A stretch of 64,000 nucleotides of DNA from contig CAWDEX010000003.1 in NCBI GenBank assembly GCA_963801475.1, forward strand, positions 11,638-75,637. Direction: 5' to 3'. Shown piece after piece: positions 1,000 through 43,342 of this stretch (positions within the stretch are counted from its first letter, which is position 1; the number at the start of each line of letters is the position of its first letter). The translations under genes and the position numbers were made by a program. Below the pieces are notes generated by a model. That model made no database searches, had not been told where the DNA came from, and saw only the letters and a program-made list of their open reading frames with translations. The DNA is from an uncultured Acidobacteriota bacterium (GTDB taxonomy: Bacteria > Acidobacteriota > Thermoanaerobaculia > UBA5066).

Positions 1000-1126
1000 C
1001 GGCCGGGCTTCTCTTGGTCTGTTCGCGGCCATGTTCCCAGCCCTTCCGGCGATGGCGCAGGTGCCGCTCGGAACCGCTGCCCGTATTGGCGTGCTCGGCG
1101 GCCAGGGTGTCACGAACACGGGGCCT
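1000..1126 (+). pseudogene. 5' fragment of a DUF3494/ice-binding-like secreted protein
   Basis: Signal-like ASLGLFAAMFPALPAMA, then QVPLGTAARIGVLGGQGVTNTGP, matching the LGTAAxFxVLxGxxVTNTGP start of DUF3494 domains. Similarity ends where a repeat copy begins. Confidence 0.55.
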
Positions 1127-1280
1127 GAAAACATAGGTCGCATAGCCGACCGACAGAGGAGCCCTGTCCCTTTCCTGCGGACCTTGAAGGGTCCAGCGGT
1201 TGACAGGCACCCGTCAATCCTCATGGCACGCTTGCACCGCGACGCTTCAGCCGCGTCTGACCGGGTGTTTTACTTCCGGG
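1121..1280 (+). repeat. Dispersed repeat family, degenerate core copy
   Basis: ggcctgaaaacataggtcgcatagccgaccgacagaggagccc...agggtccagcggttgacaggcacccg aligns by eye with 4103-4195. Confidence 0.7.
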
Positions 1281-1415
1281 GCGGCAGGAGGTACGTTCCG
1301 CGAGATCCGGCGCGACTGCCGTCGCCGAAGATTCCGCCGCCTCCGATTCGAGGCTTCGCCAGGACTCGTGCCCGGAGCGCCAGCGATCGAGCGCTTCAGA
1401 ACGGAGAGCTAGAGC

Positions 1416-2603
1416 GTGCCGAAGATCAGGCCAGCGAGATCGGCGAAAGGACGGGCGCGCCCGTCGTATCCGGACCTTCGCGCGCTGTGGGACCGTGTGC
1501 TCCACGAACACGCTTCGCCACTGCGTGTTGGGCTCGCGGTCGGTGTCGGCGTTCTGGTCGGCTGCAGCCCGTTTCTCGGCCTTCAGGTTGCCATTGCGGC
1601 GCTTCTCGCAGTCGCTTTCCGCCTCAACAAGCTGGCGGTGTTCCTGGGGCTCCAGATCTCGGCCCCGCCGCTCCTGCCTCTCGTACTCTTCGTCGGAGCG
1701 CAGCTCGGGGAGCTCGTTCGACACGGCCATCTTCTTCCGATGGACCTCAACGCGCTCCGGACGATGCCGACGAGAGACCTCGTCCACCTTCTCTTCTTCG
1801 ACCTCCTTGCGGGAGGGACATTGCTCGGCCTCGTTCTCGGGACGACACTCGGAACGTTGGCCGCGAGAATAGCGACTCGTAAGGCCCCGCCAGAGTTTCG
1901 TCTCTCCCGCGACGAGATGGTGCAACTTGGGGCTCGACTCCCCGCCTTGCCCTTTCGGCTCCGTCAGTACGCCCGGTGGAAGATCCTTCTCGACCCGGTC
2001 TACGCGGTCGTTGCCTCCCGACTGAAGGGCGTCCGCGAGACCCTTGATCTCGGAGCAGGGTTGGGGATCATGGCCGCGGTTCTCGTTCATCGTGATCCGG
2101 AACGGCGTGTCATCGCCGTGGAGTGGGATGCACGAAAAGTGGCCGGGGCCAGGCGGTTTCTCTCAGGGCTCTCGAAGATCGACGTCGTCTGCGCCGATGC
2201 GCGGCTCTTCCCGACCGCTCCGGTCGAGTCGATTCTCTTGCTCGACGTTCTTCATTACAGCGAACCGGTCGCTCAGGATGCGTGGCTTGGCCGGTGCGCG
2301 GCCGCGCTGAAGCCGGGAGGGCTGCTGATCGTCCGAGAGCATGACGCCTCTTCCAGAGGATCATTGACGGAGGGTCTCGAGCGGCTGACGGTCAAACTCG
2401 GCTGGAATCGAGGCCACGGTGTCCATCCTCGGAGGACGATCGATCTCGTCCGCCGGCTCGAGAGCCTCGGTCTGGACGTCGAGACGATCGACAAGAGTGC
2501 TGCATTGGCCGGTCTCAGGCTGCTTGTCGCGCGTAACTCGTTCGCGGCTGAACGGGTCCTCAGCCCGGTTACCAGTCAGGGGGGACTCGCGCAAAGGGCG
2601 TAG
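1416..2603 (+). CDS. DUF2062 membrane domain fused to class I SAM-dependent methyltransferase
   Basis: N-terminal HASPLRVGLAVGVGVLVGCSPFLG TM region; C-terminal LDLGAGLG SAM motif and LLDVLHY. Confidence 0.85.
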   Translation: MPKIRPARSAKGRARPSYPDLRALWDRVLHEHASPLRVGLAVGVGVLVGCSPFLGLQVAIAALLAVAFRLNKLAVFLGLQISAPPLLPLVLFVGAQLGELVRHGHLLPMDLNALRTMPTRDLVHLLFFDLLAGGTLLGLVLGTTLGTLAARIATRKAPPEFRLSRDEMVQLGARLPALPFRLRQYARWKILLDPVYAVVASRLKGVRETLDLGAGLGIMAAVLVHRDPERRVIAVEWDARKVAGARRFLSGLSKIDVVCADARLFPTAPVESILLLDVLHYSEPVAQDAWLGRCAAALKPGGLLIVREHDASSRGSLTEGLERLTVKLGWNRGHGVHPRRTIDLVRRLESLGLDVETIDKSAALAGLRLLVARNSFAAERVLSPVTSQGGLAQRA

Positions 2604-2670
2604 GTTTCGATTCGTTCGAAAGCTTCGGTTCGAGCCCGGAGAGCCGGGCATGAGGAGGACGGAAGGCAGC
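2555..2670 (+). mobile_element. Highly decayed IS3-like left-end remnant
   Basis: gggcgtaggtttcgattcgttc...cggagagccgggcATGAGG resembles the sequence at 7588-7660 that precedes an IS3 OrfA-like start. Confidence 0.4.
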
Positions 2671-2796
2671 TCGCGTCGATCAGGCGCGGACCGCAGTGGG
2701 CTCGGAAAGACCCGTCTCGAATGGGTCTAGAATCTTGTCGTGGTGGTAAAGGTTGGTTGGTCAAGCGACCCTCAGGGTGGAACCCGCCCGGCGGAA

Positions 2797-3411
2797 ATGG
2801 ATTCGGCCTCTCGTCGAGAGGCGGAGGCGAAGAGCCCGGTCTCTGCCGTGACCGAGAGCCGTCACCGCACCGTCGCCCGCCGGCTGGCGCCGGCCGTCAT
2901 GCTCCTTTGCGTGCTGCTCCCGGTTACCGCACGCGGGCTGGAGGTCAGGATCACTCCCGGCGCCGTCAAACGCGCGATCGAGATGTCCGCTTTTGTCAAC
3001 GGCGAGCTTACCCGGGAAACAGCCAACGGTTTTCTCGGCGTGACCTTGCGCAATCTCCGGGTTCGGTTTGATCCGGCCTCGAGCCGGGTATTGCTTGACG
3101 CCGACGCCGTCACGACTCTTTCCTGGTCTGGCGTCCTTACGATGTCGTTCCGGCCCAAGGTCGCGGGATCGAGGCTGTGGCTCGAGGACATCAGAATCGA
3201 GGGTGTCGATTCTGACCTGGTTCGCAACACCCTTCGCGAGCTCTTGAGCGCAGCGCTGGCAAGTCCCCGCGTCGATCTCGAGGAGAAGGCTCGGTCACCC
3301 ATCAGCGCATCTCCATACTCCCTCCGCATCTCGTCGCCGACGGTGAGAGACCTCCAGGTTACGAGCGCGTACATTCTTCTCCAGCTCGACGGCAGGGTGA
3401 CGGTCGAGTAG
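2797..3411 (+). CDS. Hypothetical secreted protein
   Basis: Signal-like RRLAPAVMLLCVLLPVTARG followed by a beta-rich mature region; start uncertain. Confidence 0.6.
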   Translation: MDSASRREAEAKSPVSAVTESRHRTVARRLAPAVMLLCVLLPVTARGLEVRITPGAVKRAIEMSAFVNGELTRETANGFLGVTLRNLRVRFDPASSRVLLDADAVTTLSWSGVLTMSFRPKVAGSRLWLEDIRIEGVDSDLVRNTLRELLSAALASPRVDLEEKARSPISASPYSLRISSPTVRDLQVTSAYILLQLDGRVTVE

Positions 3412-3608
3412 GTCTGCTTCCCTTCTCGCGATGCGAGGCCGACCTGCTCTCCGAACGCTCGTCCACCGGGGGACGCCCTATGTTCAGGGCCGCAAAGGGG
3501 ATTGCGACGCGTCGTCGCACGGGGAGACGAGCGTTTCGTTGTTGCGCGCCCGGTCGGCGGACGCCCGTCGGCCCCGTCTCAGGCTGCGGCGCGTATACGA
3601 TGTCGCAC

Positions 3609-3908
3609 ATGGGTAAAGAGCCGAAATCCGCCTACGACCTTGCGATGAAAAGGCTGGAGGTCGCCGACCGTGAGTCCGGAGTCAAGGAGATCTCGCTCTC
3701 CGGCGTGCAGAAAGAGGCGATCGCCGAGGCCCGGAGTGTCGCGGCGTCGCGCCTGGCCGAGCGAGAGATCCTCTTTCGCGACGCGATGCAAAAGACCGCC
3801 GATCCGGCCGAGCGCGATAAGGTCGAGGACGAGTACCGGATCGACCGGAAGCGGATCGAGGACGACCGGGACCGCGCCATCGAGTCGATCCGGCGCCGCC
3901 GCCGCTGA
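3609..3908 (+). CDS. Small helical hypothetical protein (PKSAYDLAMKRL type)
   Basis: Charged coiled-coil-like ORF; TACGAT -10-like hexamer 7 nt before the ATG, so possibly leaderless. Confidence 0.75.
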   Translation: MGKEPKSAYDLAMKRLEVADRESGVKEISLSGVQKEAIAEARSVAASRLAEREILFRDAMQKTADPAERDKVEDEYRIDRKRIEDDRDRAIESIRRRRR

Positions 3909-3926
3909 GATATCCGTGGAGGGCTG

Positions 3927-4384
3927 TGTAGGGGTGCCATGGGGATTGCCGGGCGTCTTGTCGGGCAACCCAGGACCACAATGGGGATTGCGGCCCGCAG
4001 CGAAGAAGTGTGGAGTGCCAGTTTGTCGGAGACGACACGCTTCCCGGTGCAGTTCATTCAGAGGCAGTTCCGGGCTGAGAACGGGTTGAATGTTCTCTGT
4101 TTGGCCCGAGAATACGGTTCGTGCGGCCGACCGAGTGGGGAGCCACTTCACGTTCCCGGGAGCCTGACAGGGTTTAGCGGTTTACAGATACCCCGCGACG
4201 ACCTCGCGGGGTCCCGCGTCTAAAGGTCGTGGAATCTGAAGGGTTTCCGCATGGCGTGTCGGCCCTGGCCTGTTCTCTGCCGCTGGAACTGAGAACGCCG
4301 AGTCACCCGCCAGAAGCCTTCTCTGGCCCGGTAGCCGCTCTCTGGCGGCCTGAAATGTCGAGAGCGGCCGAAGGCGGTTAACAG
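3927..4384 (+). repeat. Dispersed repeat family, near-complete copy (left end plus core)
   Basis: Starts TGTAGGGGTGCCATGGGGATTGCC; GGAGCCA 4139-4145; GCGGTTTACAG 4177-4187; hairpin ACCCCGCGA-cgacc-TCGCGGGGT 4190-4212; second GCGGTTAACAG 4374-4384. Confidence 0.85.
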
Positions 4385-4389
4385 GGACC

Positions 4390-4776
4390 TCAGGACTCGG
4401 AGTAAGTCGAGTAGTCCACCGTCAGTTCTTCGTTCGCTCGGATATTCCGCAACGCGAAGAACTCGTCGTTGCTGTCGAACGCGACGTTGGGATGATCGGA
4501 GTGGTTCAGGTACCACGACGGAGTCAGTTGATTGAAGTTCTTCGGACAGCCGTACCGTCCGTCTTCCTTTACGGTGAAATCCTCATAGAACGCGCGTAGA
4601 GCCTTCGGCAACCGCGAGACCACAGTCTCTGGTACCCACCGTATCTGTGTGCTGTCGTGGTTGAAGAGATAGGTGCCTTTCCGAATTCGCTTGATGGCTA
4701 TGACGCCGACTCCGTGAATTCGTGAAGGTGCTAGCCGAGTAAAGACATCGGCGTGAGGCCAGCGCCGTGACCGCAT
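4390..4776 (-). CDS. SET-domain protein (putative lysine methyltransferase)
   Basis: SRIHGVGVIA (GxG motif), YLNHSDHPNV (NHS motif), IRANEELTVDY (ELxxDY); AGGAGG RBS. Confidence 0.9.
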   Translation of the reverse strand: MRSRRWPHADVFTRLAPSRIHGVGVIAIKRIRKGTYLFNHDSTQIRWVPETVVSRLPKALRAFYEDFTVKEDGRYGCPKNFNQLTPSWYLNHSDHPNVAFDSNDEFFALRNIRANEELTVDYSTYSES

Positions 4777-4969
4777 AGGTCGGACCTCCTTCGCGGCGTT
4801 ACGGTGGACTGGAAAGGAGTCTATGCGAGACAGCCGGGTGCTGCGGGAAGGACGCAATGGGAGTTGCGGCAGGGCCGAAAGGGCGACTGGCGCGGGAGGG
4901 AAGGAAAGCGACGATAACCTCGGTGTCGGGAGAATGCCAGTCAGGCCGGACGGAGCCGCGCCATCTCCC

Positions 4970-7894: not shown

Positions 7895-7960
7895 ACCGCC
7901 GCCGGCTATTCCCAACGCGCCCTTACAATACCCCGCAATTCCCAATGCATCCCTCCAACT
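7895..7960 (+). repeat. Right-end-type fragment of the dispersed repeat (two inverted end motifs)
   Basis: cgccggctattcccaacgcgcccttaca and ccccgcaattcccaatgcatccctcc resemble 18268-18290 cgccggcaattcccatcgcgc. Confidence 0.6.
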
Positions 7961-8010
7961 CCGCGGAGGTCAGCGAGTTTCCTGGCTGAGTCCCGGGGTC
8001 ACCGCCCTGC

Positions 8011-10239: not shown

Positions 10240-10406
10240 TTTGCGCCCTCAGGCGAGCGTACGCTTTCTGCGGGAAGAAAGTCCATTCACGTCCCCTTCC
10301 CCGGCACCGGTGAACGCGTCTGCCCCGGGGAACGCGATGGTTGCGAATCCGGGCGACACGCCGATGGCGCCCACGCCACCCCGGTCTCCTCACTGTCGGC
10401 GCCGCT

Positions 10407-10570
10407 GCCCGGAGTCGCCGGTGGTCCCGAGAATCCGGTTAGCGCGGCCGACCGGCTGCGGAGCCACTACTCTCCCCCGCGAACTCAAGGAGGGTCCGCG
10501 GTTAACAGGAACCCGACGACGACCTCGCGGGGTTTCGTGCCTGAAGGGCCGGACTCAGAAGGACTTCCGG
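10407..10570 (+). repeat. Dispersed repeat family, core copy
   Basis: ccgagaatccggttagcgcggccgaccggctgcGGAGCCActactctcccccgcgaac...GCGGTTAACAGgaacccgacgacgacctcgcgggg...tcagaaggacttccg. Confidence 0.85.
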
Positions 10571-10594
10571 CTCAGGAGCGGCCGATTCTCTTGG

Positions 10595-11490: not shown

Positions 11491-11605
11491 GAACTACCCC
11501 CCAACCCGGTCACTGCCCGCTTCGGCAACAAGCATGGAAGTGACAGCCCAATAATGGAACATACGATCGGGTGGCGGGCGTCACTGCCGGGCTCATGCCG
11601 GGTGC

Positions 11606-11660
11606 CGTAGGGACTCGATGGGAATTGCCGGGGCTTCTCTCGCCAGGAAACCAGGACCCG
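11606..11660 (+). repeat. Left-end fragment of the dispersed repeat
   Basis: GTAGGGACTCGATGGGAATTGCCGGGC..ccaggacc resembles 3928-3977. Confidence 0.6.
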
Positions 11661-11879
11661 AGTTTCCTCTGTTCCGGCTGACCAGGGTGGTCTTCCACCC
11701 AGCGCCGGCCCGGGGTGCGAGGAGACGCGGTCGACTGAGGCACCCGGGCGTCTGTTCAGGCAAGCCATGGGGTTCTGGCGAGGCCCAAGGAGGTCGGCCT
11801 CCTCGCCCCGTGGCCCCCCCTGCCTCCCGCGGGACTAGAATTCGTGCCGGCTCTCCGGAAAGGGCTGATCGAGAAAAGG

Positions 11880-13514
11880 GTGATCCGCCGTGCGCGTCTC
11901 GCGACGCTCGTTCTCCTCATCGGAGGCTCAGCGATGACGGGCCCCGGCGGAGGGGCGCCGGTGGCGACGGCGCCGGCCGGTCCGGTCCGGCCCGCCGCCC
12001 TCGCCGGCTCCTGGTATCCCGGCTCTCCGGCCCTCCTCCTCGCGACCGCGCGGAGCCTGATGCGTCAGGCCTCGGCGGCGCCGATGCCGTACGGCCGGCC
12101 CGCCGCCCTCGCCGTCCCGCACGCCGGCTGGGCCTACTCGGGGACGGTCGCCGCGGCGGCCTTCCGGATCCTCAAGCCGGGCTCCTTCACGCGCGTCGTC
12201 GTGATGGCCCCCTCGCACCACGCGGCCTTTTCGGGCTACGCCCTCGAGGACGCCGCGGCCTACCGGACTCCGCTCGGCGAGATCCCGCTCGCGAGCGCCG
12301 CCCTCCGCGACCTCGAGACGCCCGGCCTCGCGCGCGTCGTTCCGGGAGCGACGGGACCCGAGCACGCCGTCGAGATCGAGCTCCCGTTCCTGCAGGCGGC
12401 GCTCCGCTCGTTCACCCTCGTCCCGATCCTCGCCGGGCGCGTCGACGCCGCGGCCGAGAAGGCCTTCGCCGAGAAACTCGCGCGGCTCGACGACGGCAAG
12501 ACGCTCTTCGTCTTCTCGTCGGACTTCACGCACTACGGGCCACGCTTCGACTACATGCCGTTCGGGCCGACGGTCGGGGCGCGCGCGAGGGTCCGCGAGC
12601 TCGACGACTCGGCGATCGGTCTCCTCCGGCGGCTCGACGCGGAAGGGTGGCGGAGCTTCGTCCGCGAGAAGGAGGCGACGATCTGCGGGGATGCGGGGCT
12701 CGTCACGATGCTCGAGCTCCTCCGGCGGATCGCCCCCGGGGCGAAGGCGACGCTCCTCGCGCACTGGGCCTCGGGCGAGATGCCGGGCCTCAGCGACGAC
12801 AGCTCCGTCGACTACGCGTCTCTGGCGTACACGCGCGAGGAGGGGTCCGTCGGGGAGCCGATGAACGCGCCGCCGCGGATCGCCGCGGTGGCGGCGGACG
12901 ACCCGCCGGTGACGGACGCCGTCGGACACGCGCTCGTCCGGGTCGCGCGCGGGGCGCTCGACGCCGAACTCCGCGGCGACACGGCCCCTCTCGACGCCGC
13001 CCTCCGGGAGCTGCCCGAGAGGCACGCCTCCCTCCCCCAACAGGCGGTCTTCGTGACGCTGAAGCGGAAGGACCCCGCCGCGATCGCGCGGCTCGGCGAC
13101 CTGCGCGGCTGCATCGGGCAGGTCGTCCCGACTTACCCGCTCGACCTCGCCGTCGTGAAGTCGGCCCTCGACGCGGCCCTCGACGATCCGCGCTTCCCCA
13201 GGGTGGAGGCTTGGGAGCTGCCGGGGCTCTCGGCCGAGGTGACCGTCCTCTCGCCGATCGTCCCGATCGTCTCCTGGAAGGAGATCCGGATCGGGACGCA
13301 CGGGATCGTCCTCGAGAAGGGGGCGCGCCGCGCGCTCTTCCTCCCGCAGGTCGCCCTGGAACAGGGGTGGACGGTCGAAGAGACGCTCGACGCCCTCGCG
13401 CAGAAGGCGGGCCTCTCCCGCGGGGACTGGAGGAGCGGCGCGAAGTTCTCCGTCTTCACCGGGCAGGTCTTCCGCGAGGAGGCGGCCCGGGCGGCCCCGC
13501 TCCCGAAACGATGA
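11880..13514 (+). CDS. amrB: AmmeMemoRadiSam protein B (MEMO1-like) fused to protein A (AMMECR1-like)
   Basis: VRPAALAGSWYP, PHAG, PSHH, EHAVE, SSDFTHYG, TICG; then FVTL..LRGCIG, DPRFP, LFLPQVA; N-terminal hydrophobic signal; start uncertain (11844 or 11880). Confidence 0.92.
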   Translation: MIRRARLATLVLLIGGSAMTGPGGGAPVATAPAGPVRPAALAGSWYPGSPALLLATARSLMRQASAAPMPYGRPAALAVPHAGWAYSGTVAAAAFRILKPGSFTRVVVMAPSHHAAFSGYALEDAAAYRTPLGEIPLASAALRDLETPGLARVVPGATGPEHAVEIELPFLQAALRSFTLVPILAGRVDAAAEKAFAEKLARLDDGKTLFVFSSDFTHYGPRFDYMPFGPTVGARARVRELDDSAIGLLRRLDAEGWRSFVREKEATICGDAGLVTMLELLRRIAPGAKATLLAHWASGEMPGLSDDSSVDYASLAYTREEGSVGEPMNAPPRIAAVAADDPPVTDAVGHALVRVARGALDAELRGDTAPLDAALRELPERHASLPQQAVFVTLKRKDPAAIARLGDLRGCIGQVVPTYPLDLAVVKSALDAALDDPRFPRVEAWELPGLSAEVTVLSPIVPIVSWKEIRIGTHGIVLEKGARRALFLPQVALEQGWTVEETLDALAQKAGLSRGDWRSGAKFSVFTGQVFREEAARAAPLPKR

Positions 13515-14665
13515 AGAACCGCCGCGAACTCCTCGTCTCGGCCGTCGCCGCGGCCGGAGCGGCGGCGACGGGACGGCTCGTGCGCGCCTCGGGCCTCCAG
13601 AACGCCGACCGCGCACCGGCGCTGCGGACACCGACGGCACCGTCACCCGGCCTCGCCGCGCAGCCGGCCCGCTGGTGGTCGCCGCTCCCCGGCCGGGGGG
13701 TCGCCTGCGGCCTCTGCTTCCGCGGGTGCGAGATCCCGGAGGGGGAGCGCGGCGAGTGCGGCGTCCGCGAGAACCGGAGCGGCCAGCTGAAGACGCTCGT
13801 CCACTCCCGCCCCGTCGCCCTCAACCTCGACCCGATCGAGAAGAAGCCGTTCTTCCACGTCCTCCCCGGGACCTCGGCGCTCTCTCTCGGGACCGCCGGA
13901 TGCAACTTCCACTGCCGCTGGTGCCAGAACTGGGAGATCTCGCAGTCGCGTCCGGAGAAGATCCCCGTCCCGACGCGGACGCCCGGGGAGATCGCTGCGC
14001 TTGCCCTGAAGAGGGGGGCTCCCGTCGTCGCGTGCACCTACTCGGAGCCGACGGTCTTCGCCGAGTACGTCCTCGACCTCGCCGTCGCGGCGCGGAAGGC
14101 GGGGCTGAAGACGGTCGTCGTCTCGAACGGCTCGATCCGCGAGGAGCCGCTTCGCGAACTCTGCCCGGTCCTCGCCGCCTACAAGGTCGACCTGAAGGCC
14201 TGGTCGGAGAAGACCTACCGCGAGATGTGCAGCGGCGAGCGGAAGGCGGTCTTGGACACGCTCCGGAGGCTCGCGAGGGCGAAGCTCTGGACCGAAGTCG
14301 TCACGCTCGTCATCCCGACGATCAACGACTCCGAGGCCGAGATCCGCTCCCTCGCGCGCTTCGTGAGGGACGAGGTAGGGCGCGAGACGCCCCTGCACTT
14401 CACGCGCTTCAACCCGACCTACCGGCTGACGAACCTCCCGCCGACGCCCGTCGCGACGCTCGAGAAGGCGCGGGAGATCGCGCTCGCCGAGGGGCTCCCG
14501 TTCGCCTACGTCGGGAACGTCCCCGGGCACCCGGGGGAGTCGACGTACTGTCCCGGCTGCAAGGCGCGGCTCATCCACCGCGTCGGGATGGCGACGGTCG
14601 CGAACCGGCTCAAGAAGGGGGCCTGCCCCGACTGCAGCCGCGCGATCCCGGGCGTCTGGAGTTGA
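13511..14665 (+). CDS. amrS: AmmeMemoRadiSam radical SAM enzyme
   Basis: CGLCFRGC..GECGVREN, DPIEKKPFFH, GCNFHCRWCQNWEISQ (CxxxCxxC), TYCPGC, CPDC..IPGVW; ATGA overlap with amrB; Tat-like KNRRELL. Confidence 0.95.
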   Translation: MKNRRELLVSAVAAAGAAATGRLVRASGLQNADRAPALRTPTAPSPGLAAQPARWWSPLPGRGVACGLCFRGCEIPEGERGECGVRENRSGQLKTLVHSRPVALNLDPIEKKPFFHVLPGTSALSLGTAGCNFHCRWCQNWEISQSRPEKIPVPTRTPGEIAALALKRGAPVVACTYSEPTVFAEYVLDLAVAARKAGLKTVVVSNGSIREEPLRELCPVLAAYKVDLKAWSEKTYREMCSGERKAVLDTLRRLARAKLWTEVVTLVIPTINDSEAEIRSLARFVRDEVGRETPLHFTRFNPTYRLTNLPPTPVATLEKAREIALAEGLPFAYVGNVPGHPGESTYCPGCKARLIHRVGMATVANRLKKGACPDCSRAIPGVWS

Positions 14666-16921: not shown

Positions 16922-16981
16922 GGGGTCTCCCGTCCAGCTTAGGCCCGAAAGGGTCCGACTCAGTAGCAGAGGTAGGAGAAG

Positions 16982-17266
16982 GAGTTCTGACCCGAGAACG
17001 TCTCGAACTTCTCAGTTCGGCCGAGGAACTGAGTTCGCGTGGCGGATCGACTGCGGAGCCACTCTTCTCCCCCGCGAACGTCTGGCAGATTCGCGGTAAA
17101 CAGGAACCCCGCGATCGTCTCGCGGGGTTTCGCGTCTAAAGTTCGTGTAGTCAGAAGGGCTTCCGCGCGGGGCGAGGCTCGGCCGGTTAACAGCCCGCGC
17201 CGTGGCGCGATCGGACTCAGGTCTCTGCGCGCCGCAGCCTCCGGCAGGTCTCATTGCGCCCCGACA
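16982..17266 (+). repeat. Dispersed repeat family, core plus right end
   Basis: GGAGCCA 17055-17061; GCGGTAAACAG; hairpin AACCCCGCGA-tcgtc-TCGCGGGGTT; second CGGTTAACAG near 17184; GACTCAGGTCTCTGCGCGCCGCA; ends CATTGCGCCCCGACA. Confidence 0.85.
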
Positions 17267-17302
17267 GTGATCGGTGTCGCGTCGACCGGCGGGACGGCCT
17301 CT

Positions 17303-17761
17303 CTAGTGGCGCGGCTCCAGGACGATCTCCCGCGCAAGACGATCGCCGATGATCTCGCGGATCTCGAGGCGGTCCTTGTATCCCTGCATCTGCTTCTGGT
17401 CGTCACCGCTGATCTTCTGGGATAGGGCGTCTGCCTTGACCTCGTTCGCCTCCATCGTGCCGAGGTCCTTGAACTCGGTCATCAAGATGATGTTGAAGTC
17501 CTGAGTGCCATGGCCTTCGGTGGTGAGCACCTTCCACGAAAGGATCAGCCCCTCCTTCTTCATCGCCTCCTGTTCCGCCTTCCAGGTGGTGGCGATGTAG
17601 TTGAGGTACGCCGTGTCCATTCCCGGCTTGATGCGGATGAACGCCATCGTCCAGACCGATCCGGGGCGGTACGGGCGCTTGACCTGCGCGTAAGCGGAAA
17701 GGCCTCCGAAGAGGAGTGCGGCCGCGATCGAGGCAACGACGATTCTCTGTTTCAGCTTCAT
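17303..17761 (-). CDS. Secreted hypothetical protein (NIPSNAP/dimeric alpha-beta barrel-like)
   Basis: Signal peptide AYA|Q; IRIKPGMDTAYLNY...KKEGLILSWKV; AAGGAG RBS. Confidence 0.8.
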   Translation of the reverse strand: MKLKQRIVVASIAAALLFGGLSAYAQVKRPYRPGSVWTMAFIRIKPGMDTAYLNYIATTWKAEQEAMKKEGLILSWKVLTTEGHGTQDFNIILMTEFKDLGTMEANEVKADALSQKISGDDQKQMQGYKDRLEIREIIGDRLAREIVLEPRH

Positions 17762-17816
17762 TTGTCCCTGCTCCTTACTCTTGAATGCGTTTGAGACTCT
17801 ATCCCATCTCTCCGAT

Positions 17817-18305
17817 TGTAGGGGCGCAGTGAGAATTGCGACGCCCGGATCGCACGGAAGAGCGGGGTGGCAGTCTTGGAAAGGTCGCGCACACTCCGGG
17901 CGAACCCGCTCATTCGAAAGCGGTTCCGGGCTGATAACGGGTTGAAGGTCCTCTGCTCGGACTGAGAACGCAGGGCGTCTGGCCGACCGACTAGGGAGCC
18001 ACTTTACTTTCCCGCGAACGTTTGGAAGGTCTGCGGTTAACAGACGCCCCGCGACGACCTCGCGGGGCGTCGTCTAGAGGGCGTGTGGTCAGAAGGACTG
18101 CGCTATCGGGTCGCTGAATCCGGACCCAAAGCCGCTTTCCGACGAGCAGAAATGCCGAGAACGCCTGAGAGCGGCTGACGGGTGGGCCGGGAGGACGTTT
18201 CGCTGGTTACCAGGCGCGCGGGTTTTCACCGAGCTGAGGCATGACTCTGGTCTCTGCGCGCCGCACCCGCCGGCAATTCCCATCGCGCGGCTATGCGCCC
18301 CCACA
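17817..18305 (+). mobile_element. Dispersed repeat family, apparently full-length copy (MITE-like, imperfect TIRs)
   Basis: Left end TGTAGGGGCGCAGTGAGAATTGC; right end reverse complement TGTGGGGGCGCATAG..TGGGAATTGCC; core GGAGCCA 17995-18001, GCGGTTAACAG, hairpin 18043-18071; no target-site duplication seen. Confidence 0.7.
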
Positions 18306-19033: not shown

Positions 19034-19133
19034 AGCGGGATCTGAGCTGTGCTGGCCGCTCGTCTCCCGGTCCCTGCACCATCCGCCGCGCCGATGAGAC
19101 GATGCGTTGAATCTCCAGAGCGCCCGAACCGGG

Positions 19134-19495
19134 GTAGGGACGTAGTGGGAATTGCCGGGACTGCAGAAGCGCAATCGAAGTTGGGGCAGGGACTTACTGG
19201 AGCACGACGTGGCTGGGGCCTCCGCATAGGCAGGGTTCCATCCCGTTGTGCCTCACCTGAAGGTGGTGCTCTTCTCGGGCTCGACGCCGGGCCCTGAACG
19301 AGAACGGCCAGCCGTTGCCCGGAGTCGAGACACTGGACCCCACTCGGCGACGCTTGGTGTGCTTCCCCCGGCCGCTGGTGCGGCCTCGTGACCGGGGTCG
19401 CACTCTCACAGAGACGTCAAGTGCCGCGGGGTAACCGATTCATTCAGAACCGATTTAGAGCCGAGAACGGGTCAGTTGATCTCTGTTCTGTCCGA
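19134..19495 (+). repeat. Dispersed repeat family, left end plus 5' part of core
   Basis: GTAGGGACGTAGTGGGAATTGCCGGG at 19134; ttcattcagaaccgatttagagccgagaacgggtc..tctctgtt at 19439 aligns with 4053-4110. Confidence 0.7.
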
Positions 19496-19515
19496 GGTTG
19501 ACGACGACTTGCCGA

Positions 19516-31931: not shown

Positions 31932-34900
31932 GTGGAACTCGTCAAGCTTCACATCGACGGCAAGCGGGTCATCGCCGACAACCGCATGACCATTCTCGAA
32001 GTTGCCCGCGAGAACGGGATCACGTCCATTCCCACGCTTTGCCACGACGGGCGCCTCGAGCCCTTCGCCTCCTGCTACCTGTGCGTCGTGAAGGTGCAGG
32101 GGGCGCGCGCCCTGACGCCGGCCTGCTCCACCAAGGTGGCGGCGGGCATGGTGGTGGAGACCTCCAACGCGGAGATCCGGCGTTCGCGCAAAGCAGCCCT
32201 GGAGCTGATGCTCTCGAACCACTACGCGGACTGCATCGGTCCCTGCCAGCTGGCCTGCCCGGCGGGAGTGGACATCCAGGGCTACATCGCCCTGGCCGCC
32301 CTGGACAAGTACCGCGACGCCATCGCCCTCATCAAGGAGCGCAACCCGCTGCCCGCGGTCTGCGGGCGCGTCTGCACCCGTCCCTGCGAAGTCACGGGCT
32401 GCCGGCACTCCCTGCTCGACGAGGCCGTGGGCGTCGATTACATCAAGCGATACCTCTCCGACGCCGACCTGCACGACAAGAGCCCCTGGCGCCCGACCCT
32501 CGCCCCTTCCAACGGCAAGAAGGTCGCGGTGGTGGGGGCCGGCCCGGCCGGGCTTTCCTGCGCCTACTTCCTGGCCCTTCGCGGATACAAGGTCTCGATG
32601 TTCGAGGCTCAGCCCGAGGCCGGGGGGATGCTGCGCTACGGCATCCCCGAGTACCGCCTCCCCAAGGACGTGCTCGACCTGGAGATCAACCAGATCCTCG
32701 ACCTCGGCGTCCAGCTGTCCACCAACGTCCAGCTCGGGCGCGACTTCACGGTCTCCAGCCTGAAGGAGGGCGGCTACGACGCCATCTTCCTGGGGCTGGG
32801 GGCCTGGGACAGCTCCAGGATGCGCGTGCAGGACGAGGACTCCCCGGGCGTACTGGCCGGCATCGACTTCCTCAAGCAGTTCGGCCTCCGGCGCAGGATC
32901 GACATCTACGGCCGGGTGCTGGTGGTGGGCGGCGGAAACACGGCCGTCGACTGCGCGCGCACCGCCCTTCGCCTGGGCGTCGCCGAGGTGCGCATCCTCT
33001 ACCGGCGCACGCGCAGGGAGATGCCCGCGAGCGAGACGGAGATCGTGGAGGCGGAGCGCGAGGGCGTGAAACTGGACTTCCTGGCCGCCCCGGTGAGGGT
33101 GCTGCGCGGGGGGGACGGCCGGGTGGCGGGGGTGGAGTGCATCCGGATGGAACTCGGAGAGCCCGATCAGAGCGGCCGCCGCAGCCCCAGGCCCCTACGC
33201 GGATCCGAATTCCGCCTCGACTGCGACTTTGTGCTCGCCGCCATCGGCCAGGGCACTCGCGTCCAGGAGCTCGTGGACGGGCGGGTGCCCAACTTCCTGC
33301 CCCTGGGCGAGTCGCTGAGCCTCACCCGCTGGCGGACCGTGGAGGTCAACGAGCGCACCTTCGAAACCACGGTGGACGGAGTGTTCTCGGGGGGCGACGT
33401 GGTCACGGGGGCGGCCACCGCCATCGAGGCCATTGCCGCCGGACGCAAGGCCGCCTACGCCATCGACCGCTACGTGGCGACGGGCCGGGCCGAGCCCGAG
33501 CCGGTGGAGGTGTACAGCCGCAAGGACGCCTACCACGAGGTCAAGGTCGACGACCTTCCCCCTGGCTCCACCGGCGGACGACGGAGGATGCCCGTGCTCG
33601 CCCCCGCGGAGCGCGCCCTGAGTTTCGCCGAGGTGGAGACCGGCTACAGCCGCGAGGACCTGCACCGGGAGACGGCGCGCTGCCTGGAGTGCGGCTGCAC
33701 GGCGCTCTTCACCTGCGATCTGCGGCGCTACGCCACCGAGTATGGCGCCGACGTGCAGACGTTCATGGGTGAGGCCGTCGAGCACGCGGTCGACCGGCGC
33801 CACCCGCTGCTGATCCTCGACCCCAACAAGTGCGTGCTGTGCGGCCGCTGCGTTCGCATCTGCAGCGAGCTCGTCGGGGTGGCCGCCTACGGCTTCGTCG
33901 GCCGCGGCTTCAGCACCACGATCAAGCCCTCCCTCGGAGATTCCCTGCTCGACACCGAGTGCGTGAGCTGCGGGCTGTGCATCGGCACGTGCCCCACGGG
34001 GGCCATCGCCGAGAAGCTGCCCCTGACCAAGCCCGGTCCCTGGATGGTTTCCCGCGTGGAGTCGGTGTGCCCTTACTGCAGCGCCGGCTGCCGGGTGAGC
34101 TACGAGGTCTCCGGCACCACGCTGGTGCAGGTCTCGCGCGCGGCTGACGGGGGGGAATCGGCGGCAATCACTGCCGCAAGGGCCGCTTCGGCTACGGCCA
34201 CGTGCAGTCGGCCGATCGCCTGCGTGGGCCGTTGCTGCGTGTCGGACGCGAGCTGCAGGAGACGAGCCTCGACGAAGCCCTGCGCTACTCGAGCATGCGG
34301 CTCAAGGAGCTCACCCGCCGCTACAGCGGCGATCAGGTGGCCGTGTTCGTCTCTCCCCGACTGACCAACGAAGAGATCTACCTCGCCCAGAAGCTGGCCC
34401 GGCTGGCCCTTCGCACGCACAACGTGACCTCGTTGTCCCAGCTCGTCAACCGGGAGCTGCAGGAGCCGGACGTGATTTCCACGGCCTCCTACGCGGACGT
34501 CGGAGACGCCCAGGCGCTGCTCATGGTCAACACGGCCCTCGACGAGGAGGGCTTCGCGGTGGACATCGCCTGCAAGCAGGCCATTCGCAAGGGCGCCCGC
34601 CTCGTCTACGTCGGCCCCGAGGACAACCGCACGTCACGCTTTGCCAAGCTGCACCTGCGCTGTCTGCCCGGCGGTCAGGCCTTTGCCGTCCTCGGCCTGC
34701 TGAAGGACTACGCCGCCCTGCGGCCGGGCGCGCTCGACGGCCAGCCGGATCTGGCCCGGGCGGTGGCTGATCTCTCCGACGAGCGCCTGGAGAAGCTCTC
34801 CGGCGTGGCGCGGACCGACTCGCGCGAGGCGGCCGCCATCCTGGCCGGGACCATCCTCAAGGTGATGCTGTTCAACAAGGACTACCGCGGCTCGCGGCGG

Positions 34901-35758
34901 ACTCATGACGAGCGGCTCTTCGCACAGGCGGCAGCCGCTCTGGGCTGCTCGCTGCTCGCCCTGCGCGAGAAGGCGAACGCCCAGGGGCTGCTCGACATGG
35001 GCGCCGACCCGCGCTGGCTGCCGGGCTACGTCGACCCGGCCGGCGGCGAGGCACTGGAGCAGATGGAGAAAGAGCTGGGGGTGGTCCTGGGCGACCTCCC
35101 GCCCCCCGGCCTGGACGTGGCCCAGCTCCTGCGCGAGAAGAAGATCCGGGGCGCCGTCGTGCTCGGCGAGGACCCGTTGGGTGCTCACGGCTTTCCGCAG
35201 GACCTGCGTGACGGCCTCCTGGCCGCCGACTTCCTGCTCGTGGGCGACCTGTTCCTCACGTCCACGGCCGCCGTCGCCACCGTGGCGTTACCGCTGTCGA
35301 GCACGGCGGAAACGAGCGGCACCATGACCAACGCCGAGCGCCGCGTGCAGGGGCTGCAGCGCGCAGTGCCCCCCGCGGGCGGGATGGAAACCTGGGAGAT
35401 CCTCAGCCAGCTCGGCGGCCTGCTCGGTTACCGGTTCAAGATGAAGTACGGGTCGGTCCAGGACGTGACCGCGGAGATCCGACGGGTCGCGCCGATCTGG
35501 GCGGGGCTCGATCCCGGCTCTGCGGGTGCTATCTGGGACACGACCGGAGTCAAGCCGCCTAGGGTCCCGTTCACCGGGCTCGGGGAGGCGTTCGTCCCGG
35601 TGCCCACTCTCGCGCTCGATACGCTGGAGGACCGCTTCGCGACCTGGTTCGCCAGGATTTTCAAGAAAGCCCGCCGGGATCGGCCCGTCGACCAGCGGTT
35701 CGTCTCGCCGAACAGCCGTGTCGCCGGTTACTCATCCGGCGAATCCGAGAGGGTCTAG
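31932..35758 (+). CDS. Fused [2Fe-2S]-GltD/NfnB-like FAD/NADP domain + 2x[4Fe-4S] + NuoG/Fdh-like domain (StnC-like), frameshift in G-run at 34149-34155
   Basis: IPTLCH..C..C..C; PCQLACP, CGRVC; VVGAGPAG; VVGGGNTAVDCAR; CVLCGRCVRIC; CPYCSAGC..GNHCRKGRFG in the next frame; TNEEIYLAQKLAR..HNVTS lacks the Mo-ligating Cys/Sec. Confidence 0.88.
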
Positions 35759-35830
35759 CGGGTTTCAGACGCCCCGCAGATCCTTCGCGGGATCTGGTGC
35801 CCAAAGGTCCTGGAATCAGAAGCGCTTCCG
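35680..35830 (+). repeat. Dispersed repeat family, degenerate core overlapping the 3' end of the StnC-like gene
   Basis: cggttcgtctcgccgaac..agggtctagcgggtttcagacgccccgc..tcgcggg..aaaggtcctggaatcagaagcgcttccg aligns with 4115-4250. Confidence 0.7.
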
Positions 35831-35915
35831 AGATGCGCGTCGATAGCGACCGCGGTCAGAACGGGAAGCCGACTGTGGCGGGAATGCTGACGAGACTCGT
35901 GCCCTGCACCTTGAA

Positions 35916-37950: not shown

Positions 37951-38099
37951 ATCGGTCGTCTTCCGTCCGGGTCGACGGGCCGGCACCGCTCCTTCGTGAC
38001 CTCCGGAGACCTGTCCCAGCTGCCCGGGAAACCATCTGAACGATATCGCGGCCAGCCGCGAGAGGAAGAGAACAGAAGGGTCCGCGGGTCGCAGGATGA

Positions 38100-38557: not shown

Positions 38558-38667
38558 TCGCGACCCGCGACAGGTCCTTTGGGAGGATACCCGGACCTCG
38601 CGGACTTCGTCTCGGGTGTCGGCTGGCGGCTCGAGGTCGTGCAATCCGAATTGCACCCCCCGGCCCG

Positions 38668-39294: not shown

Positions 39295-39396
39295 GCCTCT
39301 GATTCTGCGCCACTCCCGAGACTCCGGCGGTCAAGCCGCGCCGAGACCTCGTGTGAAGGACCCTGGATGTGATCCCGAGCACACGTTCCGTGCGGC

Positions 39397-39975
39397 ATGG
39401 GCTTCGTGTTCGTGCTGGTTTTTTTCGGAATGACGTCGGGGGCCGGGGCCCAATCTCCGGACGGACGGCCGGACGACTCCACCCCAATCGTCAGCGCGCC
39501 TCCGGAGGACGTCAAGGGAGGGGCCGAGAGGTACGAACGGAACGGCAGCTTCACCGGCCCCGTGCGCAACAGCGGACGCGCGCGCGCCAATCTTCCGCAC
39601 CCGACGAATCCCGTGCCCGGCTCCATGCCGAACATGAACATCTGCCACGGGCAGTGCCGGTGAAACCGGATGATCCTGGTGGACCCGACGGTTTCGACCC
39701 GGAACACCGCCTGGATCGCGAAGGGTTCCTCCCTGCGCACGAACCCGGGCAACAATCCTCCGGCGGTCTTCCGGAACTGGGCGGCCGCCACGTCCGGCCC
39801 GAGTGACGTGGGATTCGGTTTCTTCACCGCGATCGTTCCCACGCCTGCGAACCTGGACCCCACCGGCCGCGTCTTCTTCCACTCCTCGAACTCGCGCGTC
39901 TGGCGAAGCAACAACGGCGGGCTGACGTGGACGCGGATCGCTTCGGCCATCGCCCCGCCATCGCCCGGTCTGCGG
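39397..39975 (+). pseudogene. Fragments of a secreted BNR/Asp-box beta-propeller protein
   Basis: Signal-like MGFVFVLVFFGMTSGAGAQ, stop at 39663, then VWRSNNGGLTWT (Asp-box); truncated. Confidence 0.5.
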
Positions 39976-40002
39976 CGAGGAAGAATTGGGGGGGAAACCC
40001 GG

Positions 40003-41520: not shown

Positions 41521-41792
41521 CTCTGTACCTCCGGTTCGTCGCCTGACCGGGACCCGTTCCGGATCCCTCGGCCCGGGCGATCGTTCCGAAGACAAGCGTA
41601 TCGCAGCGAGCCGGCATGGTTTCACCCAGCGCCTGATGCGGGCGGACGTACGCGTCGAGAACGACGCCCAACTCGATCTTCTCCGTCAGGTCGTCGGCCC
41701 CCAAAGGCCGCAACAGCCACGCATATACTGATCACGCACCGATAGCCGACCCCAAAACGTTACGTGTCGAGGGCTGCGGCCGAGGAGGAGCC

Positions 41793-42032
41793 ATGTCCGA
41801 CCCGAAGATCGCTGCCAAGCAACCGATTGTCGTCAGGCTGGAAGCCGGCAGGACATACGCCTGGTGCCGTTGCGGCCTGTCCAAGGGGCAGCCGTTCTGC
41901 GACGGGACCCACAAGGGCTCCGGTTTCACGCCGCTCGTCTTCAAGGCGGAGGATACGAAAGACGTCTGGCTCTGCCAGTGCAAGCACACCGGACATCCTC
42001 CGGCGTGCGACGGCACCCACAAGACTCTCTGA
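41793..42032 (+). CDS. CDGSH iron-sulfur domain protein (two motifs)
   Basis: WCRCGLSKGQPFCDGTH and LCQCKHTGHPPACDGTH. Confidence 0.93.
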   Translation: MSDPKIAAKQPIVVRLEAGRTYAWCRCGLSKGQPFCDGTHKGSGFTPLVFKAEDTKDVWLCQCKHTGHPPACDGTHKTL

Positions 42033-42059
42033 CGCTCAGGTGCCGTTGCGATTCCGGGC

Positions 42060-42227
42060 GTGAAGATTGACGGCGTCCTGAAGATCACCCGGATCCGGGT
42101 CGCCTGCACGCTTTCGGTCCCACCGGGGATGGCCGACGACGCCCGCGAGGCGCTCAAGATGGCCATCACTCAACGCCCCGCCGCCATGAGCGCGATGGGG
42201 TGCATCGAGATCGTCGATTCGGCGTAG
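42060..42227 (+). pseudogene. OsmC-like protein C-terminal remnant
   Basis: Manual translation VKIDGVLKITRIRVACTLSVPPGMADDAREALKMAITQRPAAMSAMGCIEIVDSA; the conserved CP reads RP; no N-terminus. Confidence 0.5.
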
Positions 42228-42521
42228 ATCAGTGAGCTTCCGGCCTGAGGCTCGCGGCCGGGCCTCGGGCCATGGCGGGATTCCCTCCGCCGGAGGCGGG
42301 GGTGTCCGCGATTCATGATCCAAAGGCCATTGGGCGGCCTCCGGCCCGGTTCGGGCGCGAGGCGGCCGCGAGCGGTTCGGCCTGCGGCGACGGGGTCGAA
42401 GCTCTGATGTCGTCCCATCAGACCTGGATCGACCGATTCCGTAGAATGACGCCTCCGGAGCTTTTCCGTCTTCAGGTCTCTCGCGCTCGCCGGGTGGTAC
42501 GCTGAACGAAGGAGGCCGATC

Positions 42522-43277
42522 ATGCGCTTTCCTGTTTTCGCAGCGGCAGGCGCTGTGGTTCTCGCCGCCGCCTTGAACGCGCAGCAACCCCAGCCGGCGC
42601 AGCAACCCCAGCAGCCCCAGCAACCGCCGCAAACCCAGGCGCAGGGAGCCGGAGGATCGCAGGCCCAGGGCTTTCAACCGCCATACACCATCTATCGCGT
42701 CGACCTCATCCCCGCCGGCTTCGGGTTCGCGATGGAGGAGCCGAAGCTGGAGGGTGACGTTTGGGTCTTCCGCAGCCTGCCGGACAAGACTCTCGAGCGG
42801 GTTCCCAAGGCAAGAGTGAAGTCCGTCAGCCGGTGGTCGACGGACTACAGCAAGGAGGTCGTCTACCAGGTCGAGTTCCTTCCCACCGGCGGCGTCCTCG
42901 CCCGCGAGGAGCCGGTGAAGAAAGGGAGGCTCTACCTGATCAACACCTGGAGGCAGGGAACGCTTCTCTCCATGCAGGAGGGGGACGTCAAGAGCATCAC
43001 CCGACTGACGGGGTTTCCGGCGTTCAAGGCCGAGATGAAGGAGCTGGGCGTCGTCGTCCTGGAGACCGAGACGACCCACGCGGGCTTCAAGCAGACGGGA
43101 GATACGCCGGCACCGGGCGCGGCGTCAGCGGGAGCCCCGTCCACGAGATCGGGCCAGGGCAACTGGACGTACCAGGGGACTCCGGGGGCGTCGGACGCAT
43201 ACGCGCCGGGGAACGCGACGGTCGCGAAGCCGGGCGACACGCCGATGATGCCCCAGCCGACGCAGCCTCCTCACTAA
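42522..43277 (+). CDS. Secreted hypothetical protein with Gln/Pro-rich linker
   Basis: AAGGAGG RBS, signal peptide, QQPQ repeats. Confidence 0.8.
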   Translation: MRFPVFAAAGAVVLAAALNAQQPQPAQQPQQPQQPPQTQAQGAGGSQAQGFQPPYTIYRVDLIPAGFGFAMEEPKLEGDVWVFRSLPDKTLERVPKARVKSVSRWSTDYSKEVVYQVEFLPTGGVLAREEPVKKGRLYLINTWRQGTLLSMQEGDVKSITRLTGFPAFKAEMKELGVVVLETETTHAGFKQTGDTPAPGAASAGAPSTRSGQGNWTYQGTPGASDAYAPGNATVAKPGDTPMMPQPTQPPH

Positions 43278-43286
43278 CGCGCCTCG

Positions 43287-43342
43287 GCCCGGAGCCGCCC
43301 GGAGGCCGGAGAACGCGGCTCGCACAGCCGACCGGGTGTGGT
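43287..43342 (+). repeat. Dispersed repeat family, short core fragment
   Basis: gcccggagccgcccggaggccggagaacgcggctcgcacagccgaccgggtgtgg aligns with 10407-10462. Confidence 0.6.

Follow-up and report, generated by a model that had tools for sequence, protein, structure and literature searches.

A same-orientation repeat family in a Thermoanaerobaculia genome as probable attachment-type junctions of a cassette array at a tRNA-Asn gene

The stretch of DNA analysed here (the window) comprises 64,000 nucleotides (nt) of an uncultured Acidobacteriota bacterium of the class Thermoanaerobaculia and corresponds to positions 11638-75637 of contig C3 (CAWDEX010000003.1) in a genome of 4.21 Mb and three contigs (C1-C3), hereafter G000. 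Among the genes recognised in the window by Pfam are two for sulfatases, a Memo/AMMECR1/radical-SAM set, several for NADH/formate dehydrogenase and one each for a DUF2062-methyltransferase, a SET-domain protein, a spermine-synthase-like membrane protein, a CBS protein and an acetyl-CoA hydrolase. The part of C3 upstream of the window carries a MacAB-type efflux set, genes for SOUL and BON proteins and for a hydrolase, and an encapsulin gene with that of a ferritin-like partner. Among these genes lies the family of non-coding repeats, or units, with which this work is concerned. The genes flanking the units are unrelated to one another, and convergent, divergent and tandem settings all occur.

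The original prediction, made by reading the window, had described a same-orientation, non-coding family of at least eight copies sharing some or all of a series of ordered blocks. To follow this up, an nhmmer profile made from four full copies (4049-4258, 16966-17174, 17905-18110 and 10396-10578; E 4e-61 to 1e-45) was used to scan the whole G000 genome. Further matches in the window lie at 35696-35835 and 1122-1218 (both E 1e-10) and, weakly and for the 5' blocks only, at 19439-19496 (E 0.07). The copy at 43287 is a fragment of the left arm, 76% identical over 148 nt to 10314-10461 (blastn) and matched at 43304-43341 (E 5e-4) by R1, a sequence-only model of the left arm and core described below. 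Outside the window, copies were found at C3:1338, at C2:956156 (contig end, E 5e-28), at C1:1551447 and at C1:2286230. All eight predicted coordinates thus hold a member on the plus strand, four of them full-length and the remaining ones 5' or 3' parts, and no open reading frame (ORF) common to the copies was found. Every listed copy of G000 is on the plus strand, the sole minus-strand matches having E values of 0.2 and 0.8, and 8 of the 11 plus-strand matches with E < 1e-6 genome-wide fall in the first 55 kb of C3, with one more at the tRNA-Asn gene. Repeat finding recovered four 158-nt copies (4093, 10414, 17009 and 17949) together with a fifth, 34-nt copy of a hairpin at 35758. The family cannot have arisen by chance: 4 sites match the hairpin pattern where 0.31 would be expected, a number reached in none of 100 shuffles, and 2 match the pattern of block 1 where 0.01 would be. 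A REP or REPIN nature was rejected, given that the copies are clustered in 55 kb in one orientation, no search having been aimed at a RAYT gene; no Rfam family accounted for the repeats either, their orientation is far from random, and none of the refuting conditions set with the prediction, a known insertion sequence end among them, came out against it.

What the reading of the window had overlooked is the nature of the middle block. ARAGORN finds a single tRNA-Asn(GTT) gene among the 49 tRNA genes of G000, at C2:956092-956166 and 327 nt before the end of C2, and no tRNA inside the window. The central block of the units, CTGCGGAGCCACT, is the 3' acceptor strand, discriminator base and CCA of this tRNA-Asn, and the core CTGCGGAGCCA is its last 11 nt (3' acceptor strand plus CCA). 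From CTGCGGAGCCACT on, the units align with the tRNA-Asn locus for about 330 nt downstream of the tRNA; for instance, 4174-4385 is 71% identical to C2:956194-956407, and 17162-17246 is 82% identical to C2:956408-956490 (blastn). On the 5' side of the core, the tRNA body and T arm are replaced by a conserved left arm of about 70 nt (the P arm; consensus CTGAGAACGGGTTGAATGTTCTCTGTTCGGCCTGAGAACGCGGTTCGTGTAGCCGACCGA). The right arm consists, in order, of hairpin 1 (CCGCGAAC..GTTCGCGG), the block GGTTAACAG, hairpin 2 (CCCCGCGA-N5-TCGCGGGG), a "middle" with a third hairpin and a "tail". Units are 70-96% identical to one another across 200-500 nt. A possible tRNA ancestry of the P arm found no support: aligned locally to tRNA-Asn, the arm has a score of 17, which 11 of 300 shuffles equal (shuffle mean 12.3 +/- 2.1), and its best score over the 49 tRNAs is reached by 49 of 300 shuffles. 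At two places distant from every tRNA gene (C1:1551447-1551559 and C1:2286230-2286328) there are solitary trailer-like copies, in which hairpins 1 and 2 are present but the P arm and a good core are missing.

The prediction had also drawn attention to covariation at the base of a hairpin, and the stem-base variants A..T, AA..TT and GACG..CGTC are indeed present. Over 26 copies, 92% of the cells of the two hairpins are paired, against 29-53% with a slid partner, and 5 of 16 pairs have changed on both sides, values reached in 0-3 of 500 shuffles. Trailer, middle and tail are kept behind tRNA-Asn in two genera. Such conservation could mean that the copies are genes for structured small RNAs, or cis-regulatory RNAs, derived from the 3' external spacer of tRNA-Asn. 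This is nevertheless most improbable, as no Rfam family matches the 64-kb window at gathering thresholds (a permissive scan of 3800-4500 gave chance-level E values of 1.9 and 5.1), RNAalifold finds no consensus structure in the P arm, the best-conserved part of the unit, the units stand in no consistent relation to flanking genes, and the mosaic arms and cargo exchange described below are DNA-level phenomena. Judged from the alignments, the hairpins are the tRNA-Asn's own 3' trailer, copied along with the site, and the structured-RNA option of the prediction therefore becomes needless. Hairpins behind a tRNA gene are expected as processing or termination signals; a simple scan for intrinsic terminators did not list hairpin 2, and because its U tract is too short the term terminator expresses a mere likeness.

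Relatives place the tRNA-Asn gene at the head of such clusters. A DNA search of 41 genomes (G000 and 40 relatives) gave matches in 22, one of them weak (G030, a genome that enters no other result), and in the genomes of the window's own genus (g1, seven genomes) the matches form same-strand clusters. In G002, the tRNA-Asn gene (L011:4993-5067, plus strand) is followed by 8 plus-strand units over 30 kb, and in G004 a minus-strand tRNA-Asn gene is followed by 6 minus-strand units (ARAGORN, nhmmer). The same co-oriented arrangement headed by tRNA-Asn is found in G057, which belongs to another genus, and in both G057 and G000 the trailer stands directly behind the tRNA. The single orientation noted in the window was real and set by the tRNA-Asn gene, not by the replichore. 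Across the taxonomic family, R1 has matches in 32 of 63 genomes, representing 5 of 10 genera, and a junction-pattern scan of a genome collection returned 58 loci, 38 with real units, many in metagenome-assembled genomes (MAGs) of Acidobacteriota or Thermoanaerobaculia. In G000 the tRNA-Asn gene closes C2 and the array opens C3, so that C3 would continue C2.

The segments between units behave as exchangeable cargo. Blocks of it are common to G000, G002, G003 and G004 in a different order; block A, for example, precedes the sulfatase block in G000, and in G004 it follows the Memo block. The shared cargo DNA is 86.6-95.2% identical, compared with 72-82% for the housekeeping genes upstream of tRNA-Asn and 73-87% for the syntenic chromosome beyond the array. 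Since cargo identity exceeds flank identity, the cassettes are of more recent common ancestry than their hosts. Cassettes reach 16 kb and carry genes on both strands. The AmmeMemoRadiSam trio of the window (11844-14665; a Memo-AMMECR1 fusion, then a radical-SAM protein) is array cargo, with 93.6% identity to its G004 counterpart. Another cassette, found at other array positions in G002 and G004, includes the gene of an encapsulin shell protein (Linocin_M18) and that of its EncFtn-like partner (C3:10668-11696, running into the window start). A 640-nt contig of another metagenome covers positions 17267-17837 of the window, that is, a cassette for a 152-aa protein alone, from one minus-strand to one plus-strand copy of a 25-nt motif treated below; being unlike the window beyond both ends, this one short contig suggests that the cassette exists with other flanks. 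In relatives, the gene beside a P arm is strikingly often one for a Ser/Thr protein kinase with fused TPR or PD40/WD40 repeats (L082, L088, L089, L096, L102 and L112), and in G057 one such fusion gene (L022:16243-18897) forms a single-gene cassette between two core copies.

The units themselves are mosaic. Among 25 units (300 pairs, which reuse units and are not independent), the identities of P arm and trailer are uncorrelated (r = -0.06), as exemplified by one pair with 0.96 in the P arm and 0.56 in the trailer and another with 0.71 and 0.96. Unit G003_C19_8572 resembles G002_30010 on its left (0.89) and G002_14276 on its right (0.96). The search for change points was confined to the conserved span, since the homology ends of truncated copies confound such a scan; 40 of the 300 pairs showed a strong one, for which identity had to reach 88% on one side and to fall by 0.2 or more. 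In 24 of the 40 the switch lies between -4 and +13 of the first G of GGAGCCA, and in 13 it is at +7/+8. The P arm is more conserved overall, and a switch at the core would therefore be favoured even without exchange; reciprocal pairs, low on the left and high on the right, argue for real exchange.

As to the enzyme behind such exchange, no copy adjoins a recombinase gene in the window's genome or genus, and the abutting gene looked for since the original prediction turned up in relatives, as a large serine recombinase (LSR). Neither C3 nor the region near the C2 end has a match to PF00589, PF00239 or PF07508. Tyrosine integrases (PF00589) are absent from and near the arrays of G000, G002, G003, G004, G010, G013, G019, G057, G062, G063 and G065, apart from one 25-bit fragment 9.5 kb from a P arm in G065, and Pfam scans of array ORFs returned none. 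A tyrosine integrase as driver was consequently dropped: G000 has 8 PF00589 matches, none on C3, the nearest on C2 being 240 kb from tRNA-Asn. An integron was likewise rejected, no IntI-type PF00589 match occurring in the arrays of G000, G002, G003, G004, G057 and G063. Phage origin fared no better, for of 38 viral contigs with a 15-base P-arm pattern none matches R1, and the junction pattern itself had no viral match.

In a flank scan of the collection loci, an LSR gene stands beside the core in 3 of 26. The LSRs of G022:C89 and G048:C86, from the LSR-bearing sister genus g4, are 79% identical, lie on the strand opposite to the unit and have 3' ends that run into the core. With the C-terminal half of the LSR as query, 15 places were found in the family at 43% identity or more. 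Eight of them are 21-25 nt from an opposite-strand R1 match (G048, G022, G047, G062 and G063; full genes or C-terminal remnants), two, intact and 44-46% identical, are directly against the true tRNA-Asn gene (G049 and G024), and the other five are at contig edges or outside the places examined. The G049 LSR ORF (2992..4659, minus strand; L130, G049:C11) has Resolvase, Recombinase and Zn-ribbon domains and overlaps the tRNA-Asn gene (2932-3006) by 15 nt, and the homologous ORFs of G048:C86 and G022:C89 read through the core into the P arm. The C-terminal tail of the LSR depends on the integration state, because the ORF ends in tRNA-Asn in one case and reads into the P arm in the other.

In these two genomes with an LSR gene at the tRNA, the native trailer is displaced downstream in the same orientation, by 25.2 kb in G049 and 20.3 kb in G024. 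It was located with the trailer itself as query, a search with an attR 13-mer in G049 having given control-level matches. By comparison with the attB-type site of G057, tRNA|trailer, the attL site reads tRNA|CTTAAATGGCTCAG.., into the LSR 3' end, and the attR site ..CTGAGCCATCCACCCGGGGAGCCA|trailer. A 9-nt inverted repeat, CTGAGCCAT/ATGGCTCAG, surrounds the shared GGAGCCA, with CTGAGCCAT in the attR side and ATGGCTCAG on the tRNA side, a layout that an attP of a serine recombinase should have. The sites of G049 and G024 are a textbook attL/attR pair. Serine recombinases need no arm sites.

Taken together, the repeats are probably attachment (att)-type junctions of a tandem array of recombinase-less cassettes at the 3' end of the single tRNA-Asn(GTT) gene. 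The left (P) arm would belong to the cassette on the left, strand exchange would occur in the core CTGCGGAGCCA, its exact position being perhaps that of the commonest switch points, and the right arm, a copied tRNA-Asn trailer, would be part of the cassette on the right. The recombinase would most likely be an LSR supplied by autonomous members of the element family, such as those in relatives whose LSR gene, encoded on the other strand, adjoins the core and extends with its 3' end up to or past the presumed crossover. Because no such LSR gene was found in the genome or the genus, the cassettes of the window, at least ten, would be recombinase-less passengers comparable to cis-mobilizable elements (CIMEs) or to pseudo-members of the staphylococcal cassette chromosome (SCC) family, and would be either fixed or movable only by a recombinase supplied in trans. 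Of the options offered by the original prediction, the recombination site is the one supported, and the inter-copy segments behave as recombinase-less cassettes.

Several observations weigh against this account. A trailer copy is present in every g1 unit, whereas one attP x attB event leaves one, so that the model needs composite accretion or cassettes carrying their own trailer. The tRNA-proximal trailers of G000, G002 and G004 are 78-79% identical to one another and only 69-74% to other units, and frequent insertion at the array head is therefore not indicated. The junction of C3 to C2 is placed by inference because the assembly breaks inside a unit. The LSR lineage is present in none of the seven g1 genomes, adjacency of core and LSR is seen in genus g4 only, and the sole LSR-like gene of G000 (C1:1391142-1391825) has a stop codon and lies at another tRNA island. 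Three LSR lineages occur near cores, and the first LSRs seen there were only 23-32% identical; a single dedicated lineage was rejected on this ground, and only the lineage-1 survey is consistent. No excision product or empty site was seen in public sequencing runs, none of them of RNA, each of which holds at most 0.15 of the sampled words and yields contigs that are short pieces of relatives; unit-unit "joints" in such contigs (side 26-40 nt, likeness below 95) were discarded as cross-mapping of paralogous units. The pairs of the mosaic analysis share units, 16 of the 40 strong change points fall elsewhere than at the core, several cargo borders are at or near the 25-nt motif instead of the core, and homologous recombination in the conserved core region of about 20 nt could yield the same mosaics.

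Some of these points would fit a history with no dedicated recombinase, in which a 0.5-kb module (the tRNA-Asn trailer region plus a left extension) was duplicated along a hypervariable region, cargo was swapped by homologous recombination or transformation, and the LSR elements were other tenants of the hotspot. No array in g1 has a recombinase, cargo homology often stops at module edges marked by the motif, not at the core, and the identity between units is enough for occasional homologous exchange. We regard this history as unlikely, in view of the strict single orientation with a real tRNA gene as head copy, a signature of site-specific integration, and of the close and repeated apposition of LSR 3' ends to P arm and core, or to the true tRNA, which is unlike that of a random tenant. 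The commonest switch, moreover, is limited to 10-20 nt at GGAGCCA, a short stretch for an exchange that depends on RecA.

The array might also be a working cassette platform, a serine-recombinase analogue of the integron, whose cassettes carry their own trailer as right att arm. A perfect attB would in that case be restored by each insertion at the tRNA, and every internal junction of P arm, core and trailer would be equivalent in sequence to an attP. One LSR in trans could then serve for both insertion and excision of any cassette, with no need of a directionality factor, and the ends of cassettes would be marked by the inverted 25-nt motif for a second activity. Were this rather doubtful extension true, it would account at once for the trailer at each junction, the independent assortment of arms and the single-gene cassettes.

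The motif in question, GTAGGGGCGCAATGGGAATTGCCGG, has an internal GCAAT-N4-ATTGC palindrome, flanks units and cargo in inverted orientation and often marks the end of cargo homology. In G000, G002, G003 and G004 it stands in + orientation 90-180 nt before P arms and in - orientation about 400 nt after the core. Some copies are tandemly repeated at a spacing of about 30 nt, and others form pairs of 150-300 nt that enclose no core, such as C3:5104(+)/5404(-). In the window, copies lie at 3928-3956, 11600-11635, 17808-17838 and 19130-19162 in + orientation and at 7901-7960 and 18262-18295 in - orientation (Table 1). These terminal-inverted-repeat-like (TIR-like) features would suit a unit that is a non-autonomous element of about 500 nt, similar to a miniature inverted-repeat transposable element (MITE), bounded by inverted GTAGGGGCGCAATGGGAATTGCCGG, having captured the tRNA-Asn trailer and served by a transposase elsewhere. 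However, MITEs are dispersed, whereas the tRNA-Asn array holds all the units, in one orientation, and every good copy of the motif, and contig C2 ends within one such motif; no target-site duplication is evident at C3:5104/5404, the one pair read by eye, and no associated transposase is met repeatedly, since the two IS110-family genes, the DDE gene and the rve gene that were seen lie at different loci. A MITE-like origin is accordingly held to be very unlikely.

The motif was also compared with XerCD/dif sites, as used by integrative mobile elements exploiting Xer (IMEX) or pdif modules, and this candidate was discarded, the two classical dif-like sites of G000 (..CCGATAA-N6-TTATGTTAAAT; C1:1706904 and C1:2715951) being unlike it. 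The site at C1:2715951 is about 1.4 kb from a tyrosine integrase gene (C1:2717330) and 1.9 kb from tRNA-Asp, and one of the two sites may belong to a Xer-dependent or integrase-borne element.

The features of the window are collected in Table 1. Around the two motifs at 7901, cargo homology to G003 and G004 stops about 330 nt to their left. The motif at 11600 is followed by a 190-nt block common to G002, where it has another cargo context (junction alignment). The 152-aa protein of the single-gene cassette has no Pfam match. The left part of the trailer-only copy at 35696 overlaps the 3' end of a molybdopterin oxidoreductase gene (Pfam, 34202-35755), and the most distal copy is followed by unrelated sequence with an acyl-CoA dehydrogenase gene, synteny with G004 C1 starting about 3-5 kb further on.

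Table 1. Units, TIR-like motifs and the single-gene cassette in the window (window coordinates)
Feature	Position	Strand	Evidence
Degenerate unit: 3' half of P arm, core-like GAGGAGCC, hairpin 1 remnant	1122..1218	+	nhmmer E 1.4e-10 (profile 56-152); R1 E 4.4e-5
25-nt TIR-like motif (GTAGGG..GGGATTGCCGG), ~120 nt upstream of unit	3928..3956	+	Repeat D17; motif profile E 1.1e-5
Full unit: P arm, core GTGGGGAGCCA, hairpins 1 and 2 (to 4258), middle with third hairpin (to 4385)	4049..4385	+	nhmmer E 3.9e-61
Two tandem TIR-like motifs at border of two cargo segments	7901..7960	-	E 0.0035, 6.3e-5 (C3:19538, 19567)
Unit with shortened P arm, core CTGCGGAGCCA, trailer hairpins	10396..10578	+	nhmmer E 1.2e-45 (profile 28-211)
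Solitary TIR-like motif	11600..11635	+	Motif profile E 1.7e-6
Full unit (to 17174) and tail ending in diverged TIR-like motif (-)	16966..17268	+	nhmmer E 5.2e-58
Single-gene cassette, 152 aa, GC content at third codon positions (GC3) 0.86, between two full units 940 nt apart	17303..17761	-	ORF
TIR-like motif (+) 17808-17838, full unit 17905-18110 (core CTAGGGAGCCA), middle, tail, TIR-like motif (-) 18262-18295	17808..18295	+	nhmmer E 4.5e-57; motifs E 0.0058, 6.9e-5
TIR-like motif 19130-19162 and P-arm 5' fragment 19439-19496, without core or trailer	19130..19496	+	Motif E 2.4e-5; nhmmer E 0.07
Trailer-only copy (hairpin 2 and following blocks)	35696..35835	+	nhmmer E 1.1e-10 (profile 68-207)
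Most distal copy: P-arm fragment, degenerate core, without trailer	43195..43341	+	blastn 76%/148 nt; R1 E 5.1e-4

Two further observations were made. A 94-nt stretch directly left of two P arms (10301-10394 and 43182-43275) is 77% identical between them, and in both a minus-strand frame reads IGVSPGFAT(I/V)AFPGA, which DNA identity alone could explain; it may be a further left-arm module or the start of paralogous genes. Elsewhere in G000, about 0.7 kb from tRNA-Glu/tRNA-Lys, a serine recombinase gene interrupted by a TGA neighbours a tyrosine integrase frame of 531 aa (C1:1391142-1392895); this is a second and unrelated tRNA-linked island.

In summary, a repeat family that could not be placed becomes a readable map, in which at least 55 kb of the genome would be stacked, exchangeable cassettes anchored on tRNA-Asn. 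The same hotspot works across a family of uncultured Acidobacteriota within Thermoanaerobaculia, a little-studied group, and the array explains the assembly breaks of this group at the tRNA-Asn locus. In practical terms, the combination of P arm and GGAGCCA provides a simple marker by which the accessory cassettes of such MAGs can be delimited. Tyrosine recombinases make up most of the integrases known to target tRNA genes; the candidate LSRs reported here come with natural attB, attP, attL and attR sequences, and such enzymes are wanted as genome-engineering tools. A limited literature search, covering LSRs at tRNA genes and mobile elements of Thermoanaerobaculia, returned nothing on this system. 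The original statement that the repeats fit no named family was overstated all the same, because tandem integrative islands at tRNA or tmRNA genes are a known class into which they fit.

Within and around that class, several systems can be compared with the array. SCCmec and composite SCC elements are integrated at rlmH (orfX) by CcrAB or CcrC, form tandem composites and include pseudo-SCC without recombinase genes. The array shares with them LSR-type integration at the 3' end of a conserved gene, direct repeats between tandems and recombinase-less members, and differs from them in that its LSR is no Ccr equivalog (the best match of the G049 enzyme, to CcrB, reaches 95 bits against a cut-off of 900), its target is a tRNA gene and its cargo is metabolic or unassigned instead of resistance genes. 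For the Dehalococcoides islands treated below, too, a comparison with SCC has been drawn (PMC3146451). Like integron arrays, it consists of same-orientation, small, often single-gene cassettes with structured sites between them and an order shuffled among relatives; unlike in integrons, there is no IntI-type recombinase at the array, the sites are conserved in sequence, cargo lies on both strands and cassettes reach the size given above.

Islands beside tRNA genes in which successive integrations push older elements inward are also known from the tycheposons of Prochlorococcus, whose islands hold scattered partial tRNAs and degraded integrases (bioRxiv 10.1101/2020.12.28.424599). Tycheposons rely on tyrosine recombinases and partial-tRNA repeats, in contrast to the long conserved junction units found here. 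The accretion and mobilisation of CIMEs at tRNA or fda sites in streptococci, a concept quoted in PMC3146451, is a further parallel. Streptococcal CIMEs involve tyrosine integrases, short att repeats and usually one or two elements, versus ten here.

The closest described system is the ssrA island array of Dehalococcoides. Its genomic islands (ssrA-GIs) are bounded by direct repeats of the gene's 3' end, with the LSR DsiB on the reverse strand next to attL, and those without an integration module were proposed to be cis-mobilizable (PMC3146451). Both systems stack tandem islands behind one single-copy small-RNA gene, in one region and one orientation, and both involve an LSR (about 540 aa in Dehalococcoides), extra conserved sequence at each repeat and islands devoid of a module (PMC3146451). 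The differences lie in the phylum, here Acidobacteriota, in the target, tRNA-Asn instead of tmRNA, and in the junction, of 200-500 nt with a trailer copy at every one, against about 85 nt in Dehalococcoides. Finally, the units of genus g1 are without a recombinase, and the array is further set apart from the ssrA-GIs by the flanking, inverted 25-nt motif.

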